Assembly: GCA_003552785.1 (NCBI GenBank)
Contig: PUOQ01000035.1
Location: forward strand, 1 to 35,711
Reading direction: 5' to 3'
Origin: Dehalococcoidia bacterium
GTDB taxonomy: Bacteria > Chloroflexota > Dehalococcoidia > Dehalococcoidales > CSSed11-197
Length of the DNA stretch: 35,711 bases
Shown here: piece after piece, positions 6,966 to 13,069 of the stretch
Layout of the letters: each line of letters opens with the position of its first letter
How positions within the stretch are numbered: position 1 is the first letter of the stretch
Translations under genes and position numbers: made by a program
Notes under the pieces: model-generated
Databases searched by the model: none
Seen by the model: only the letters and a program-made list of their open reading frames with translations
What the model was told of the DNA's origin: nothing

Positions 6966-7040
6966 TGGTGGGCTCGGCAGGATTCGAACCTACGACCAAA
7001 CGGTTATGAGCCGTCCGCTCTGCCACTGAGCTACGAGCCC
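6966..7040 (-). tRNA. tRNA-Met (anticodon CAU), elongator-type; tRNA-Ile2 (lysidine) not excluded
   Basis: The reverse complement, GGGCTCGTAGCTCAGTGGCAGAGCGGACGGCTCATAACCGTTTGGTCGTAGGTTCGAATCCTGCCGAGCCCACCA, folds as a cloverleaf. It has a 7-bp acceptor stem, anticodon loop CTCATAA, T-loop TTCGAAT and an encoded CCA. The G1-C72 pair argues against an initiator tRNA. Confidence 0.9.
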
Positions 7041-7082
7041 GGTGTCTATATTTTACCCTACAAAAGATAAGACAAGTCAAGC

Positions 7083-7158
7083 TGGAGCGGGAGACGGGAC
7101 TCGAACCCGCGACAACCTGCTTGGAAGGCAGGGACTCTACCAGCTGAGTTACTCCCGC
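7083..7158 (-). tRNA. tRNA-Gly (anticodon UCC)
   Basis: The reverse complement, GCGGGAGTAACTCAGCTGGTAGAGTCCCTGCCTTCCAAGCAGGTTGTCGCGGGTTCGAGTCCCGTCTCCCGCTCCA, folds as a cloverleaf. Anticodon loop CTTCCAA, encoded CCA. Confidence 0.93.
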
Positions 7159-7683: not shown

Positions 7684-7837
7684 CGAACCTTTATCTCCTA
7701 TTTAATATTTATTCTATATTCGATTTACCAGTTACAATCAAAGCCGCGCTTTCAATCAGGCTGGCAGAACTACCGGTAATGCACCAGATAAACAGGCCCG
7801 GCTGAGCGCGGCTTTAAATCATTAACTTTTTTTGAAA

Positions 7838-8545
7838 CTAAGAAGCTTTTTCGGGTTTCCAGACCTGCCACACTTTACCCACAAGTTCAGGAGAGGGTTT
7901 TAAAGTCTGTTTGCCCGGCTGCCACTCGGATGGCATTACTTCACCTGTCTTGCGTGTATGCTGGAAAGCTTTGATCTGGCGAATCAGTTCACCAACATTG
8001 CGCCCTACCGGCGGAGTCAGCACTTCCATTGCCTGTATAATCCCATCAGGATCGATTATGAAACGGCCACGAATGTTAACACCTGCATCCTCATTATAAA
8101 CCCCGTAAGCACTCCCGATACGTCCGCCCTGATCCGAAAGCATAGGAAAAGGAACCCCTCCATCAACCATCCTGGAAAGCTCTTCTTCCTGCCATATTTT
8201 GTGAGAAAACTGGCTGTCGGTGCTAATAGAAAACACCTGCACTCCCAGTTCTTTTAACTCGTCATGCCTGGCGGCAACTGCCCCCAACTCCGTCGGTCAG
8301 ACAAAGGTAAAATCACCCGGGTAGAAACATACAACTACCCACTTCCCCTTGCTGTCTGATAGCTTAACTTTTTTAAACCCTCCGTCAACAAAAGCGTTGG
8401 CTTCAAAATCCGGAGCTGGTTTACCTACCTTTGCTGTCATAACTTGCTTTGATTCCTCCTTCTGATTTTCTTTCTGCTCGCCTGCTTCGCTATCGGAAAC
8501 AGGGCCTTTTGCTGGACTTACACATCCAGGTGGTTTTTCAGCCAC
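7838..8545 (-). CDS. prxU: Selenocysteine-containing peroxiredoxin (AhpC/Prx1 family, PrxU-like); TGA at 8297-8299 read as Sec
   Basis: ORFs 8297..8551 and 7838..8287 are in the same frame and separated only by TGA. Read-through gives KPAPDF...[22 protein letters not shown]...STDS...[10 protein letters not shown]...[11 protein letters not shown], collinear with 2-Cys Prx/AhpC, with the TGA exactly at the FVCPTE Cys. Two starts are possible: GTG 8545 (SD AGGAGG 6 nt upstream) or ATG 8440 (canonical Prx N-terminus [12 protein letters not shown]). Confidence 0.85.
8268..8287 (-). promoter_or_regulatory. Candidate bacterial SECIS hairpin downstream of the Sec UGA
   Basis: The mRNA reads UGA-CCGACGGAG-UUGGGGGCAGUUGCCGCCAG. 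This gives stem UUGG/CCAG, a G-G mismatch, stem GGC/GCC and apical loop AGUU (which contains G-U), about 18-21 nt after the UGA. Folded by eye only. Confidence 0.4.
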
Positions 8546-8613
8546 TAGCAACCTCCTGAAGAATTATTATTAATTAAACCCTGGTATATGATGGGTAATT
8601 AATCAAGCGTTAT

Positions 8614-9018
8614 TCAACCAACTGGCAATCTTTTCCGGGATTCAGTACAGACACTGCAGGCACCGAAGAACTCAACATGGTGGAACTTTACCTCGGCGCC
8701 GGTTTTACCTTCCACCCATCGATCAAGCTCCTGCTTGACCGGCACATCAAGATCAAAAACTCCGCCGCACTGTTCACATTTCAGATGATAATGAACAACC
8801 GGGTTTCCGTCATAACGATTGGCATTGCTGTCAATTTTAAGTTCTAAAATGCGCCCCGACTGAGTCAATTGTTTCAAGTTGCGGTAAACAGTCCCTTTGG
8901 AAATATTGGGTATGATCTTACGTGCTTCATCATAAACCCAGTCCGCATTGGGATGGCTTTTTGTATTTTTTAAAATGTTTATAATGACCTGTTTCTGTTT
9001 CGTATTTCTTTGTTTCAT
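8614..9018 (-). CDS. Fur-family metalloregulator (Fur/PerR-type)
   Basis: N-terminal winged helix (NTKQKQVIINIL...HPNADWVYDE...ISKGTVYRNLKQL). HYH motif, and two CxxC pairs (CEQCG, CSVCT) for the structural Zn site. Located directly upstream of the peroxiredoxin. Confidence 0.85.
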   Translation of the reverse strand: MKQRNTKQKQVIINILKNTKSHPNADWVYDEARKIIPNISKGTVYRNLKQLTQSGRILELKIDSNANRYDGNPVVHYHLKCEQCGGVFDLDVPVKQELDRWVEGKTGAEVKFHHVEFFGACSVCTESRKRLPVG

Positions 9019-9113
9019 ACTAATACCTATTACTAATATTATTAAACAACAAACTTGTGTGATATGTCAAACGGCTTCATTGCTCAAAGTACCTTACCAA
9101 AGACTGCATATGC

Positions 9114-9142
9114 TTGACAAACATTAAGCACAGGAATAAAAT
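9114..9142 (+). promoter_or_regulatory. Sigma-70-type promoter of the DUF5320/NifX/MinD-like cluster
   Basis: TTGACA (9114-9119), a 17-nt spacer, then TAAAAT (9137-9142). A second TATAAT lies at 9163-9168. Confidence 0.55.
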
Positions 9143-9143
9143 A

Positions 9144-9165
9144 ATAATGAGCATATGCTCATTAT
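9144..9165. promoter_or_regulatory. 22-bp perfect palindrome, putative Fur-family operator
   Basis: ATAATGAGCAT|ATGCTCATTAT is exactly self-complementary. The outer heptamers ATAATGA/TCATTAT match Fur-box half-sites. It lies immediately downstream of the -10 element and 33 nt upstream of the first cluster gene. Confidence 0.5.
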
Positions 9166-9198
9166 AATACCAATGAAGCGGGCAAGGAGGTGAACTAT

Positions 9199-9456
9199 AT
9201 GTTTAACAGAGAAGTAAACGCCAGGCATTTCAACCGGAGACTCGGAATGGGATTTGGCTTCAAGGGTTATTCCCCGCCATGGCCTTATACCGGGCGGGGT
9301 AGAGGTGGTTTGCCCAGATGCGAGTATTTCACAGGTGCCACCAGGAAACCCTTAAGCAGGCAGGATGAATTGAATGACCTGAAAAGCCGTGCAGAATTTC
9401 TGAAAAACGAGCTTAAAGATCTGGAAGCCGAAATACAATCACTAGCGGAAAAATAA
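9199..9456 (+). CDS. DUF5320-family protein (Gly/Arg-rich N-terminus plus C-terminal coiled coil)
   Basis: SD AAGGAGG lies 8 nt upstream of ATG 9199. GRGRGGLPRCEYF is followed by the heptad-like LNDLKSRAEFLKNELKDLEAEIQSLAEK. The family typically neighbours NifX-like and MinD-like genes. Confidence 0.65.
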   Translation: MFNREVNARHFNRRLGMGFGFKGYSPPWPYTGRGRGGLPRCEYFTGATRKPLSRQDELNDLKSRAEFLKNELKDLEAEIQSLAEK

Positions 9457-9475
9457 TAGTATTGGAGGAAAACAG

Positions 9476-9880
9476 GTGAAAATAGCCGTTTCTTCAACGG
9501 GTGCCAGCCTGAATTCGCAGATAGAGCCAAGATTTGGGCGGTGCGAACAATTTATCATAGTGGACCCTGAAACAATGCGTTTCGAGGTTATGGAAAACCC
9601 CGGCTCGATAGCCAGCGGGGGAGCGGGCATAACAACAGCCCAGGAAATTGCCCGGAAAGGCGCTGAAGCAGTTATTACGGGCCACTGTGGACCCAATGCC
9701 CACCGGGTATTGACTACAGCCGGGATAGACGTAATAACGGGGGTTTCGGGTACAGTACAGGAAGTTGTAACCGGGTATATAAGGGGCCAGTACACTCCAT
9801 CAGTCAACCCCAACGCCCCCGAACACTTCGGAGCTGGAGCCGGGTTTAAACGGGGTAAAGGGAAGGGCAGCAATTTATAA
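9476..9880 (+). CDS. NifB/NifX-family (dinitrogenase FeMo-cofactor-binding domain, COG1433) protein
   Basis: MKIAVSS...IEPRFGRCEQFIIVD...GGAGITTAQEIARKGAEAVITGHCGPNAHRVLTTAGIDV is typical of the Nitro_FeMo-Co domain. SD GGAGGA lies 6 nt upstream of the GTG start. Confidence 0.85.
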   Translation: MKIAVSSTGASLNSQIEPRFGRCEQFIIVDPETMRFEVMENPGSIASGGAGITTAQEIARKGAEAVITGHCGPNAHRVLTTAGIDVITGVSGTVQEVVTGYIRGQYTPSVNPNAPEHFGAGAGFKRGKGKGSNL

Positions 9881-9914
9881 TTGCCAGACATTTTAGAGGC
9901 AGATAACCACTACT

Positions 9915-10760
9915 ATGCTTATATCTATTGCCAGCGGTAAAGGCGGCACAGGCAAAACACTGGTAGCCACCAGCCTTGCCTGTGCCATCAAAGATACATA
10001 CAGTGTTGAGCTTATAGACTGTGATGTCGAAGAGCCGAATGCACACATTTTCATAAACCCCGAATTTACCGTTAGTGAAGTTGTAGAAACACCCGTACCC
10101 AAAATCGATGAGTCAAAGTGCAACCACTGCGCCAAATGCTCCAAAGCGTGTGTTTTTAACGCCATAGCGATACTCAATGAATCGGTTCTTACTTTTCCAG
10201 ATTTGTGTCATGGATGCGGGGTATGTGCCTTCGTCTGCGAAAGAAAGGCTATAACTGAAGTGCCGTATCGTACAGGCCTAATTGAAAAGGGCTATGCACC
10301 AGGCATAAAATTCAAGCAGGGCAAGCTTGATATAGGCAGGGCTATGGCAACACCAGTTATAAAAAAATTAAAGGAGGATGCAGGTAAAGAACAGGATGTA
10401 ACCTTTATTGACTCACCTCCGGGCACCTCCTGTTCAATGGTAGAGGCGGTAGATGCCAGTGATTTGTGCTTGCTGGTGACCGAATCCACCCCATTCGGGT
10501 TAAACGACCTTGAACTGGCCCTGCAAACCATTAACCAGCTGGGAGTTCCGGGGGCCGTTATAATAAACCGGGCCCGCCCTGAAGACAGAAGAGTCGAGCA
10601 GTACTGCCAGCAAAACCAGGTCCCAATTCTCATGCAGATACCACTGGATTACAGTATCGCCAGGTTATATTCAAAGGGTATAACCCTTGCCCTTGGTTCC
10701 CCACAGTGGCGAGAGAATTTCAGGCACCTTTTTGAAAAAACAAAGGAGCTTGTCAGGTGA
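9915..10760 (+). CDS. MinD/ParA-superfamily P-loop ATPase with inserted 2x[4Fe-4S] ferredoxin domain (COG1149-type)
   Basis: Deviant Walker A SGKGGTGKT. Two ferredoxin motifs, CNHCAKCSKAC and CHGCGVCAFVC, are inserted after it. Walker B-like region VTFIDSPPG. Confidence 0.85.
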   Translation: MLISIASGKGGTGKTLVATSLACAIKDTYSVELIDCDVEEPNAHIFINPEFTVSEVVETPVPKIDESKCNHCAKCSKACVFNAIAILNESVLTFPDLCHGCGVCAFVCERKAITEVPYRTGLIEKGYAPGIKFKQGKLDIGRAMATPVIKKLKEDAGKEQDVTFIDSPPGTSCSMVEAVDASDLCLLVTESTPFGLNDLELALQTINQLGVPGAVIINRARPEDRRVEQYCQQNQVPILMQIPLDYSIARLYSKGITLALGSPQWRENFRHLFEKTKELVR

Positions 10761-11611
10761 AGGAAATAGTCGTTCTAAGCGGTAAAGGCGGAACTGGAAA
10801 AACCTGTATAGCTGCCTCATTTGCGGTGCTTGCCAAAAACAAGGTGATGGCCGATTGTGACGTGGATGCTGCCAATCTTAACCTGCTGCTTGCCCATGAA
10901 ATCCTGGAAGAACATGAATTCCAAAGCGGACAGGTAGCCAGAATAAACGAGGCCAGTTGCCTGAGTTGCCGACTCTGCGAGCAGTACTGCCGCTTTGATG
11001 CCATTGATAACTGCCAGGTAGTCGAAACCAGGTGCGAGGGGTGTGGATTATGTTTGCTTGTTTGCCCGTTTGAAGCAGTAAGCATGCACCCCAATATTGC
11101 CGGCAAATGGTTTGTGTCAAACACCCGGTACGGAAAGTTTGTACATGCCCGCCTGGGCATTGCCCAGGGAAGTTCGGGCAAGCTTGTAGCCATGGTAAGG
11201 CAAAAAGCCAAAGACATCGCCGGGACAAACAGCGCCGAATATATAATAACAGACGGGCCGCCAGGCACCGGATGCCCGGCCATTTCTTCCCTGTCTGATG
11301 CTGACCTTGCCCTGCTGGTAACAGAACCAACCCTGACCGCACATCATGACCTGGAAAGAGTAGCAGGTTTATGCCGGCATTTTGGAGTCTCGCAGGCAGT
11401 ATGCATTAATAAGTGCGACTTAAACGAGAGTAACAGCCGGAGCATTGAAAAATATTGTGAAAAATTAAATATACCCGTAGTTGGTAGAATACCTGTAGAC
11501 GACAGCTTCACCAGGGCAGTGGAACAGGGCATCCCGGTTGTTGAATTCACCTGCAACAGCCCGGTGAAAGAAATAGAGAAGATGTGGGCTTTCTTAGATT
11601 CCAGGATCTAA
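10757..11611 (+). CDS. Second MinD/ParA-superfamily ATPase with inserted 2x[4Fe-4S] ferredoxin domain (COG1149-type)
   Basis: SGKGGTGKT, CLSCRLCEQYC, CEGCGLCLLVC and IITDGPPG motifs. The GTG start overlaps the preceding stop (GTGA), suggesting translational coupling. Confidence 0.85.
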   Translation: MKEIVVLSGKGGTGKTCIAASFAVLAKNKVMADCDVDAANLNLLLAHEILEEHEFQSGQVARINEASCLSCRLCEQYCRFDAIDNCQVVETRCEGCGLCLLVCPFEAVSMHPNIAGKWFVSNTRYGKFVHARLGIAQGSSGKLVAMVRQKAKDIAGTNSAEYIITDGPPGTGCPAISSLSDADLALLVTEPTLTAHHDLERVAGLCRHFGVSQAVCINKCDLNESNSRSIEKYCEKLNIPVVGRIPVDDSFTRAVEQGIPVVEFTCNSPVKEIEKMWAFLDSRI

Positions 11612-11670
11612 TGCGATGATACCTGATGATACATTTAATAAAAATATAATCAAAATAAACGGAGGAAGCT

Positions 11671-12036
11671 ATGAAATACGCCATACCCCTGACCAATAAA
11701 AGAGTATCACCCCATTTCGGCCACTGTGAACAATTTGCCATAATTGAGGTTGATGAAAGCACAAAGGAAATAACAGGAAAGGAAATGGTTACACCGCCTC
11801 CGCACCAGCCCGGAGTGCTGCCCAAGTGGCTGGCAGGTTATAATGTTTCGGCCATAATAGCCGGGGGCATGGGGCTTCGTGCCAGAGAACTTTTCAAAAG
11901 CAATAATATTGACGTTATCACCGGTGCCACCGGAATAGAACCGGAAAAAGCAGCCAGAGATTATTTGCAAGGCACTCTTCAAACCGGAGATAACACATGT
12001 GATCACGGAAACGGGCACCATACCTGCAACCACTGA
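11671..12036 (+). CDS. NifB/NifX-family (COG1433) protein with Cys/His-rich C-terminal tail
   Basis: MKYAIPL...VSPHFGHCEQFAIIEVD...IAGGMG...IDVITG domain. The tail is TCDHGNGHHTCNH. SD GGAGGA precedes the ATG. Confidence 0.85.
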   Translation: MKYAIPLTNKRVSPHFGHCEQFAIIEVDESTKEITGKEMVTPPPHQPGVLPKWLAGYNVSAIIAGGMGLRARELFKSNNIDVITGATGIEPEKAARDYLQGTLQTGDNTCDHGNGHHTCNH

Positions 12037-12070
12037 TACATTTTTAAAAAATTCAGCGAAAGGTTAAAGC

Positions 12071-13069
12071 ATGACAGACAAGAGCCTGGTTAAACAAAAA
12101 CTGGAAAACCTGGTACTGCCCAATGCAAAACGGAGCATTACCGAACTCAACCTGGTACGGGAAATAAGTATAGATGATGCCGGGGTAAACGTCACCCTGG
12201 CATCGACAACCATGCTACCCAAGCTCCAGGACTGGTTAAAAAAGAAAGTAACCGAAACCATCAAGGAAATAAACGGCGTAAAAGAAGTAAACATCAAATA
12301 CTGTGACTGCAAAACTGGAGAACTCAACAACATAAAACAAACACTGGCAGTCATGAGCGGTAAGGGGGGTGTCGGCAAATCCCTGGTAACCGGCCTGGTT
12401 GCAGTAGCTCTCAAAAAGCAGGGCTACCAGGTTGGCATCCTGGATGCCGACATCACCGGACCTTCAATTCCTAAAATGTTTGGCGTAAATTCTCCGCCCA
12501 GTGGCAGCGACACCGGTATTTTGCCCGTTGTTTCAGAAACAGGCATTCCTCTAATGTCTATAAATCTCATCCTGCCCGATGAAGGGGAAGCCGTCATCTG
12601 GCGGGGCCCAATGATTGCCAATGCCATAAAACAGTTTCACGATGATGTCCTCTGGGGAAACCTGGACTATCTGGTTGTGGACCTGCCGCCGGGTACTGCG
12701 GATGCACCCTTAACGGTAATGCAATCATTCCCCATTTCTGGCGTGATTATAGTATTTACGCCCCAGGATCTGGTGGATATGATAGTTAAAAAAGCCCTGA
12801 ACATGGCCAGGAAAATGGATAAAAAGGTGCTGGGCGTGGTTGAAAATATGAGCTACCTGTATGTCCCGGAGCTGGATAAAAACATCGAAATATTCGGTGA
12901 AAGCCGCGGTGAAACAATGTCTGAAGCTGCCAAAGCCCCTCTGCTGGGCCAGATACCCATAGACCCTGAACTGGCAAAGCTTTGTGACGCAGGAAGCATA
13001 GAAGAATACGATGGAGAGGTTGTGCGTAATTTAAGTGAAAAATTAAAACAGGAGCTATCAGTCCAGTAA
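12071..13069 (+). CDS. Mrp/NBP35/ApbC-family P-loop ATPase lacking the conserved CxxC cluster-ligand motif
   Basis: N-terminal DUF59-like domain, Walker A SGKGGVGKS and DLPPGT motif. ENMSYLYVPELDKNIEIFG sits where family members have ENMS..xCxxCxxxxxIFG. Confidence 0.85.
   Translation: MTDKSLVKQKLENLVLPNAKRSITELNLVREISIDDAGVNVTLASTTMLPKLQDWLKKKVTETIKEINGVKEVNIKYCDCKTGELNNIKQTLAVMSGKGGVGKSLVTGLVAVALKKQGYQVGILDADITGPSIPKMFGVNSPPSGSDTGILPVVSETGIPLMSINLILPDEGEAVIWRGPMIANAIKQFHDDVLWGNLDYLVVDLPPGTADAPLTVMQSFPISGVIIVFTPQDLVDMIVKKALNMARKMDKKVLGVVENMSYLYVPELDKNIEIFGESRGETMSEAAKAPLLGQIPIDPELAKLCDAGSIEEYDGEVVRNLSEKLKQELSVQ

Follow-up and report, generated by a model that had tools for sequence, protein, structure and literature searches.

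The stretch of DNA analyzed here (the window; 35,711 nt, or 35.7 kb, of contig PUOQ01000035.1) contains a peroxiredoxin gene of the PrxU family in which a TGA codon takes the place of the codon for the peroxidatic cysteine. We consider it very likely that this in-frame TGA is a true selenocysteine (Sec) codon, and that the gene is the functional prxU of a Dehalococcoidia-like anaerobe, in which Sec would be inserted and the product would act as a peroxidase. This reading is carried by a single frame that continues across the TGA, by the presence of TGA at this position in all of the best related loci, and by a conserved and covarying hairpin just downstream of the codon. The PrxU family is already known and curated and is not rare; the window gene is a new member of it. 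The main value of the analysis is a correction of annotation, as prxU and many of its relatives are split, or are given an active-site Trp, in public protein sets. Once the pieces are read as a single selenoprotein, the inventory of oxidative-stress genes in Dehalococcoidia and other anaerobes is corrected, and the host would be marked as a user of Sec.

A TGA codon at the peroxidatic position of prxU

On the minus strand of the window, a single frame runs from a GTG at 8545 to a TAG at 7840..7838 (Table 1). A mechanical list of open reading frames (ORFs) breaks this gene into two pieces, 8297..8551 and 7838..8287. Translation confirmed that the pieces form one frame divided by the TGA at 8299..8297 alone, as an earlier note on this DNA had claimed, and no other frame disruption or degenerative change was found in prxU. 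The read-through product aligns end to end with human Prx2 and with bacterial AhpC, and matches the Pfam domains AhpC-TSA (6.7e-41) and 1-cysPrx_C. In the alignment, the TGA falls on the peroxidatic Cys51 of human Prx2 (FTFVCPTE), within the local context PGDFTFV-TGA-PTE.

The product was assigned to PrxU with the NCBIfam model NF040737 (peroxi_PrxU), a curated equivalog model for selenocysteine/cysteine thioredoxin-dependent peroxiredoxins. Scored with U replaced by C, it exceeded the cut-off of 270 with 388.8 bits, and its residues 7-232 cover profile positions 3-232 of 233. It scored below the cut-off of the AhpC model TIGR03137 (204 bits; cut-off 272), far under the cut-offs of the Prx6-type 1-Cys models PRK13189, PRK13190, PRK13191, and PRK13599, and at 18 bits against the Prx-SUH model NF045827 (cut-off 298). 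The best matches by structure and sequence were Prx1-4 and AhpC. A Cys-form relative (P0010) that was modeled with AlphaFold has the Prx fold, with a predicted local distance difference test (pLDDT) score of 85 and a template modeling (TM) score of 0.9 to human Prx2; its N-terminal motif was modeled with only moderate confidence (pLDDT of about 66). The C-terminal resolving Cys within GEVCP, which characterizes typical 2-Cys peroxiredoxins and forms their intersubunit disulfide, is replaced in the window protein by Met204, and family-wide this position is occupied by T, M, A, I, or L. The earlier note had placed the TGA exactly on the peroxidatic Cys of the Prx motif, and had described a product that is collinear with AhpC/Prx1, lacks the canonical resolving Cys (GEVMPSEW), and is of the PrxU type. 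These points are borne out by the alignment to human Prx2, the TM score of the modeled family member, the family-wide survey, and NF040737 together with the direct comparison to the prototype given below.

Homologs were searched among GTDB species representatives (one genome per species), with the query restricted to the 149 residues that follow the TGA, which made the search blind to the codon itself. This search yielded 539 confirmed relatives. TGA was found at the Sec codon in 80 of the 80 best loci, which are distributed over Chloroflexota, Zixibacteria, Deltaproteobacteria/Syntrophaceae, Actinomycetota, Nitrospirota, and others. Ordinary AhpC paralogs, present in three of these loci, carry TGT or TGC instead and keep GEVCP. 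The same 708-nt gene, including the TGA, was also found in identical form in three other assemblies (two metagenome-assembled genomes (MAGs) from NCBI and one Logan assembly), which are independent and all agree on the codon. With the TGA conserved across loci and across assemblies, the claim that this is neither two ORFs nor a pseudogene holds. As a separate observation, one locus from a MAG labeled as Cytophagia (L030) contains a pair of Prx genes with TGA, about 0.9 kb from each other (2114 and 2989), one of which keeps GEVCP.

Sec-containing peroxiredoxins with a TxxU motif belong to the experimentally supported bacterial selenoprotein families (PMC13188914), and by 2006 had been recorded in Syntrophus, Syntrophobacter, Geobacter, and others (PMC1794560). 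With the family covered in reviews and TGA present in all 80 of the best loci from GTDB representatives, the earlier note's description of PrxU as rare did not stand. Its statement that such genes are routinely misannotated proved dependent on the pipeline. In the three assemblies with the identical gene, the gene calls of the collection split it into products of 82 and 149 aa, whereas the NCBI records for Peptoclostridium acidaminophilum and Chloroflexota ZRK35 annotate prxU as one coding sequence (CDS). A different artifact was seen among the top full-length matches in protein databases, of which 76 out of 118 show W at the Sec position. These entries would stem from metagenome gene callers that choose genetic code 4 for short contigs and so translate the TGA. 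Public metagenome protein sets contain many PrxU entries with a Trp active site (FTFVWPTE) among the matches P0001-P0120, which we take to be systematic mistranslations of Sec.

Numbered from the U of the UGA as position 1, a hairpin with a stem of 8 pairs and a four-base loop at nt 21-24 begins 9 nt past the codon. In the window, 7 of the 8 pairs are formed, the remaining one (17-28) being a G.G mismatch where a Gly codon reads GGG in place of the usual xCG. The hairpin is part of the minimum-energy fold, and at -11.1 kcal/mol it is more stable than the family median (-8.9) despite the mismatch. Of 79 loci, 72 have AGUU as the apical loop, and the remaining 7 carry GGUC or GGUU there. Across loci, 83.5% of the cells are paired, and in 5 of the 8 pairs both sides change in a compensatory manner. 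The covariation score was not reached by any of 500 shuffles, and all slid registers gave lower pairing as well as lower covariation. In some loci (for example, L038, L041, and L051), the encoded amino acid is altered while the pairing is preserved. The constraint extends to synonymous positions: third-position entropy at codons +6, +7, and +8 after Sec (GCA-GUU-GCC) is 0.44, 0.38, and 0.61 bits, against a mean of 1.79 elsewhere, and no other conserved fourfold-degenerate codon in the gene has a value as low as these three. In three Cys-form members of the family, just 3, 5, and 6 of the 8 pairs are retained, and the ordinary AhpC paralogs in the same loci have no such hairpin. An Rfam scan of 7700..9100 returned chance-level matches only, with no bacterial selenocysteine insertion sequence (SECIS) family among them.

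The gene thus has the arrangement by which bacterial selenoprotein genes are recognized, namely a conserved stem-loop just 3' of the UGA with a G/U loop some 16-37 nt away. The earlier note had proposed a hairpin with a G/U-containing loop at this very location, and had named the lack of a conserved hairpin in orthologs that carry the UGA as a finding that would speak against it; these orthologs keep the hairpin, and it covaries. Both this covariation and the conservation of the codon exceed by far what chance would give. Work of the Bock laboratory on the SECIS of Escherichia coli fdhF reportedly found G23/U24 of the loop to be essential; G22/U23 of the window hairpin lie one nucleotide off. 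A UGA followed by C is a weak termination context. In the mechanism that we propose, SelB loaded with Sec-tRNA(Sec) would be recruited by the hairpin, whose tetraloop contains GU, and Sec would be inserted at codon 83.

An N-terminal extension, two probable start sites, and two conserved cysteines

To our knowledge, PrxU has been studied in one organism only, and three features of the family appear to be unstudied: an N-terminal extension with a Cys, an internal Shine-Dalgarno sequence with ATG, and a Cys ten residues before Sec (position -10). A search of the open literature found no description of a function for the C-x-x-P arm, of dual starts, or of a relay between Sec and Cys.

In 68 of 81 loci, the frame remains open for some 35 codons ahead of the canonical Prx start, and in related loci an upstream start with a Shine-Dalgarno sequence goes together with the N-terminal motif. 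The extension has the consensus M-[AP]-E-x-K-D-[GSQ]-C-V-x-P-[AS]-K-G-P-I and then continues as a variable linker; it is also contained in the PrxU profile and in the prototype prxU. Its codons are conserved at positions 1 and 2 and free at position 3, a periodicity typical of coding sequence, from which we conclude that it is translated. Cys8 is invariant in an alignment of 51 sequences, with entropies of 0, 0, and 1.0 at the three positions of its codon, while Pro11 is conserved in at least 90%. A lipobox was considered for the N-terminal G-C motif and rejected for the window gene, as no signal peptide precedes it. By comparison, a planctomycete-type subgroup of Cys forms (P0012, P0016, P0017, P0021, and P0028, one of them from Neorhodopirellula) does have a signal peptide before the C-x-x-P, which suggests that exported versions of the enzyme exist there.

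A second potential start lies at the end of the extension. A Shine-Dalgarno-like 5-mer is present at -18..-4 of the internal ATG in 70 of 79 loci, compared with 7.4% of background windows. The residue pairs at this place vary (KE, QE, EG, GG, and RR), and the conservation of the 5-mer is therefore at the level of nucleotides. Judged from these sequences, the gene probably has two initiation sites (GTG 8545 and ATG 8440), which would give rise to a long isoform of 235 residues and a short one of 200 residues.

Cys8 and Cys73 are the only cysteines of the window protein besides Sec, and both are conserved in the family. Cys73 is invariant in 80 loci. A Cys at -10 is found in 75 of 76 TGA forms and in 27 of 40 Cys forms (Fisher p = 2e-6, uncorrected for phylogeny), so that it may be coupled to Sec. 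The window gene thus shows the complete PrxU architecture, consisting of an N-terminal C-x-x-P, a Cys at -10, and no C-terminal resolving Cys; this list of features was drawn here from the prototype and the 80 loci, and is not a published definition.

The Sec-tracking Cys at -10, the Cys arm, and the paired starts together lead to hypotheses on how the enzyme might be recycled in the absence of the normal resolving Cys. From what is known of the family, the selenolate would attack H2O2 or an organic hydroperoxide, yielding a selenenic acid. Because Met stands in place of the canonical resolving Cys, this acid must be captured by another thiol, and a protein thiol would trap it as a selenenylsulfide. 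We would guess at Cys73 as the primary partner, because it is ten residues from Sec, is present in both predicted isoforms, and is near-invariant in Sec forms; Cys8, on a flexible N-terminal arm, may be a tethered thiol that serves as an accessory or an alternative. The selenenylsulfide would then be reduced by thioredoxin or a comparable reductant, and the enzyme regenerated. More broadly, we tentatively suggest, as a possibility that we ourselves regard with some doubt, that the resolving thiol has moved off the C-terminal arm, that Cys73 and/or the Cys of the N-terminal arm act as a relay, and that the gene provides isoforms with and without the tethered Cys. In such a relay, the isoforms might differ in the recycling of the selenenic acid or in protection against over-oxidation.

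Table 1. Features of prxU and its surroundings in the window
Feature	Coordinates	Strand	Remarks
prxU coding sequence, long form	7838..8545	-	GTG start 8545..8543; 235 codons and TAG; single frame, matches to NF040737 and Pfam
Shine-Dalgarno sequence AGGAGG	8552..8557	-	6 nt ahead of GTG 8545; read from sequence
N-terminal extension, 35 codons	8441..8545	-	motif, then variable acidic linker; not in ordinary AhpC/Prx1
Cys8 codon TGT, in C-x-x-P	8522..8524	-	candidate tethered resolving thiol; invariant in the 51-sequence alignment
Internal Shine-Dalgarno sequence GGAGG	8455..8459	-	inside K-E-E codons; 14 nt ahead of the internal ATG
Internal ATG, Met36	8438..8440	-	canonical Prx start; probable start of the 200-residue short isoform
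Cys73 codon TGT	8327..8329	-	ten residues before Sec; candidate resolving thiol; Phe in ordinary Prx1/AhpC
UGA codon 83, read as Sec	8297..8299	-	FTFV-U-PTE; aligned to Cys51 of human Prx2; TGA in 80/80 loci
SECIS-type hairpin, nt 13-32 from the U of the UGA	8268..8287	-	loop AGUU 8279..8276; G.G mismatch 8283/8272
Met204 codon, at the resolving-Cys position	7934..7936	-	GEV-M-PSEW; counterpart in human Prx2 is Cys172 (GEVCPAGW)
Fur-family PerR-like regulator gene	8614..9018	-	directly upstream of prxU; Pfam FUR 3.6e-25

Alternative readings, host, and genomic context

Three observations weigh against reading the window gene as an active selenoprotein gene with two starts. First, selA, selB, selD, and tRNA-Sec were not found within the 35.7-kb window, and a wider look at the window and 60 related loci did not return a tRNA-Sec either. 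Second, the pair that is a G.G mismatch in the window hairpin is C-G in 71 of 78 loci. Third, the internal Shine-Dalgarno sequence is 14 nt from its ATG, a longer spacing than in most loci, and the short isoform may therefore be weakly made.

The lack of Sec machinery in the window would fit a host that does not decode Sec, in which an otherwise intact prxU is a relic or a recently transferred, nonfunctional copy, and the UGA either terminates or allows low near-cognate read-through. The scattering of PrxU relatives over phyla, which suggests horizontal transfer, would fit as well. However, the hairpin is intact and of above-median stability, and no degenerative changes are seen in the gene. 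In addition, a gene that is 80% identical and syntenic is present in another Dehalococcoidaceae MAG (L003), and Dehalococcoidia include some of the most selenoprotein-rich bacteria (PMC13326102). A loss of Sec decoding is therefore very unlikely.

Alternatively, the hairpin could be a by-product of the conserved peptide E-L-x-A-V-A rather than an element bound by SelB, with read-through driven in another way. A-V-A is indeed conserved in the Cys forms as well, and no Rfam family matches the hairpin. Neither point accounts for the third positions of GCA-GUU-GCC, the most constrained synonymous positions of the gene, for the pairing that is kept through amino-acid replacements, or for the loss of pairs in Cys forms; the closeness of the loop to that reported for fdhF likewise argues for a SelB-binding element. 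We hold this explanation to be highly improbable.

That prxU is a pseudogene, or that its TGA is an assembly or sequencing error from a TGY Cys codon, is suggested at first sight by the two ORFs that gene callers yield and by the missing Sec machinery in the window, but is effectively refuted by the TGA in all 80 of the best loci, the identical sequence in three independent assemblies, the constraint on both halves at the protein level and on the hairpin at the RNA level, and the otherwise undisturbed frame. Virtually no weight can be given to a reassigned UGA (code 4 or 25) encoding Trp or Gly, for although W stands at the Sec position in most of the top protein matches, such calls would reflect the code-4 choice of gene callers, a peroxidatic Trp or Gly would destroy catalysis, and 8 of the 27 Pfam-supported genes of the window end at TGA while none needs TGA to be read through. 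The genetic code of the window is therefore standard. In a scan of the whole window for further selenoprotein genes, which required an in-frame TGA with 40 or more codons to either side, only prxU plus noise was returned. The conservation of the codon, the independent assemblies, the W entries, and the standard code together exclude a pseudogene, a miscall, and a reassigned codon, leaving Sec as the very likely product of the UGA.

The window was placed in Dehalococcoidia on the basis of its SecD, which is 77-78% identical to relatives from Dehalococcoidaceae/Dehalococcoidales MAGs, and of the synteny with L003. The window and L003 also share tRNA genes after prxU, with tRNA-Gly(UCC) and tRNA-Met found at 6966-7158 (-) in the window and at 3752-5772 in L003, which adds support to the placement.

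Directly upstream of prxU is a gene for a PerR-like regulator of the Fur family. Its best NCBIfam matches are PerR models, all of them below their cut-offs. In 16-17 of 79 loci, a Fur-family gene is found no more than 3 kb from prxU, and other frequent neighbors are genes for desulfoferrodoxin, rubrerythrin, and flavodiiron proteins. Together with Fur/PerR, these make up a peroxide and oxygen defense set of anaerobes. From the arrangement of the genes, it is probable that the PerR-like protein regulates prxU or is co-transcribed with it; expression would then respond to peroxide, as part of the oxidative-stress defense of an anaerobe.

Several sequence elements were noted around these two genes. 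A perfect palindrome of 22 nt, ATAATGAGCATATGCTCATTAT, lies at 9144-9165, some 125 nt ahead of the PerR-like gene, and adjoins a good plus-strand promoter match (TTGACA..TAAAAT, 9114-9142). The palindrome could serve as an operator for two divergent gene sets, perR-prxU and NifX/MinD. Between the perR stop and the ribosome-binding site of prxU, an AT-rich sequence, TTTAATTAATAATAATTC (8561-8578, -), loosely resembles a Fur/PerR box. Past the prxU stop (7740-7815, -) is an inverted repeat with 11-nt arms, AAAGCCGCGCT and AGCGCGGCTTT, about 54 nt apart and with no T-run after it, which could be a structure for transcript end or processing.

The divergent cluster at 9190-13069 (+) encodes a DUF5320 protein, two NifX-like proteins (Nitro_FeMo-Co), two MinD/CbiA-type ATPases with 4Fe-4S motifs, and Mrp/NBP35. 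Chloroflexota ZRK35 (L088) has a similar cluster next to its prxU, and in P. acidaminophilum (L087) the gene after prxU is an Mrp gene. As a feature of the prxU family, the NifX-like/MinD-like/Mrp cluster was rejected, since it is found in only 2-3 of 79 loci.

Comparison with known systems

The prototype of the family is PrxU of P. acidaminophilum (formerly Eubacterium; RefSeq WP_084481301.1). A tblastn search of plasmids located its gene on a megaplasmid of this organism, where it is annotated as prxU, "thioredoxin-dependent peroxiredoxin", with 55% identity. The two genes share the position of the UGA (FTFV-U-xTE), the Cys ten residues ahead of Sec, and the lack of a C-terminal resolving Cys. 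The prototype has a hairpin, UUUCAGC-AGUU-GCUGAAA, at the same distance from the UGA as in the window. It also has an N-terminal extension, MPQDFKPGCARP..., with its own Shine-Dalgarno sequence and a G-C-A-R-P motif, of which G-C-x-x-P is common to the window gene. An internal Shine-Dalgarno sequence followed by Met is present in both; in the prototype it reads AAGGAGG and precedes Met36/Met38. A Fur-family gene lies near prxU in P. acidaminophilum, while in the window prxU is directly behind the PerR-like gene. The genes differ in the residue after Sec, which is Pro in the window (UPTE) and Ala in P. acidaminophilum (UATE), and at the resolving-Cys position, where Met in the window corresponds to Ala. 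Their hosts differ as well, being a Dehalococcoidia-like member of the Chloroflexota and a clostridial amino-acid fermenter, respectively.

The prototype also bears on the question of two isoforms. Starting at Met38, its product has 203 residues with Sec at position 47, and the P. acidaminophilum PrxU protein published by Sohling et al. (2001, Biol Chem 382:979) reportedly consists of 203 residues with Sec47. The published protein would therefore represent the short isoform only.

With AhpC (TIGR03137) and human Prx1-4, the window protein shares the fold and the P-x-x-x-T-x-x-(C/U) scaffold plus Arg, and the AhpC-like C-terminal segment TLKPxxxLVGK is present in PrxU. A modeled member of the PrxU family is 46-47% identical to human Prx2. 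Unlike AhpC and Prx1-4, the window protein has Sec for the peroxidatic Cys, Met204 for the resolving Cys, Cys for Phe at -10, and the N-terminal extension.

The selenoenzymes MsrB1 (SelR) and thioredoxin reductase of mammals resolve their oxidized Sec with a Cys in a mobile terminal part of the chain. By analogy, Cys8 on the N-terminal arm of PrxU may have a comparable role; the proposed logic alone, in which the Cys traps a selenenic acid as a selenenylsulfide and thioredoxin then reduces it, is common to these enzymes and PrxU, whose folds and reactions are unrelated. Other Sec-containing thiol peroxidases and oxidoreductases, including Prx-like UxxC proteins, Prx-SUH, and GPx, have a thioredoxin fold, as does PrxU (PMC13188914), but their motifs (UxxC, CxxU, and UxxT) differ from that of PrxU.

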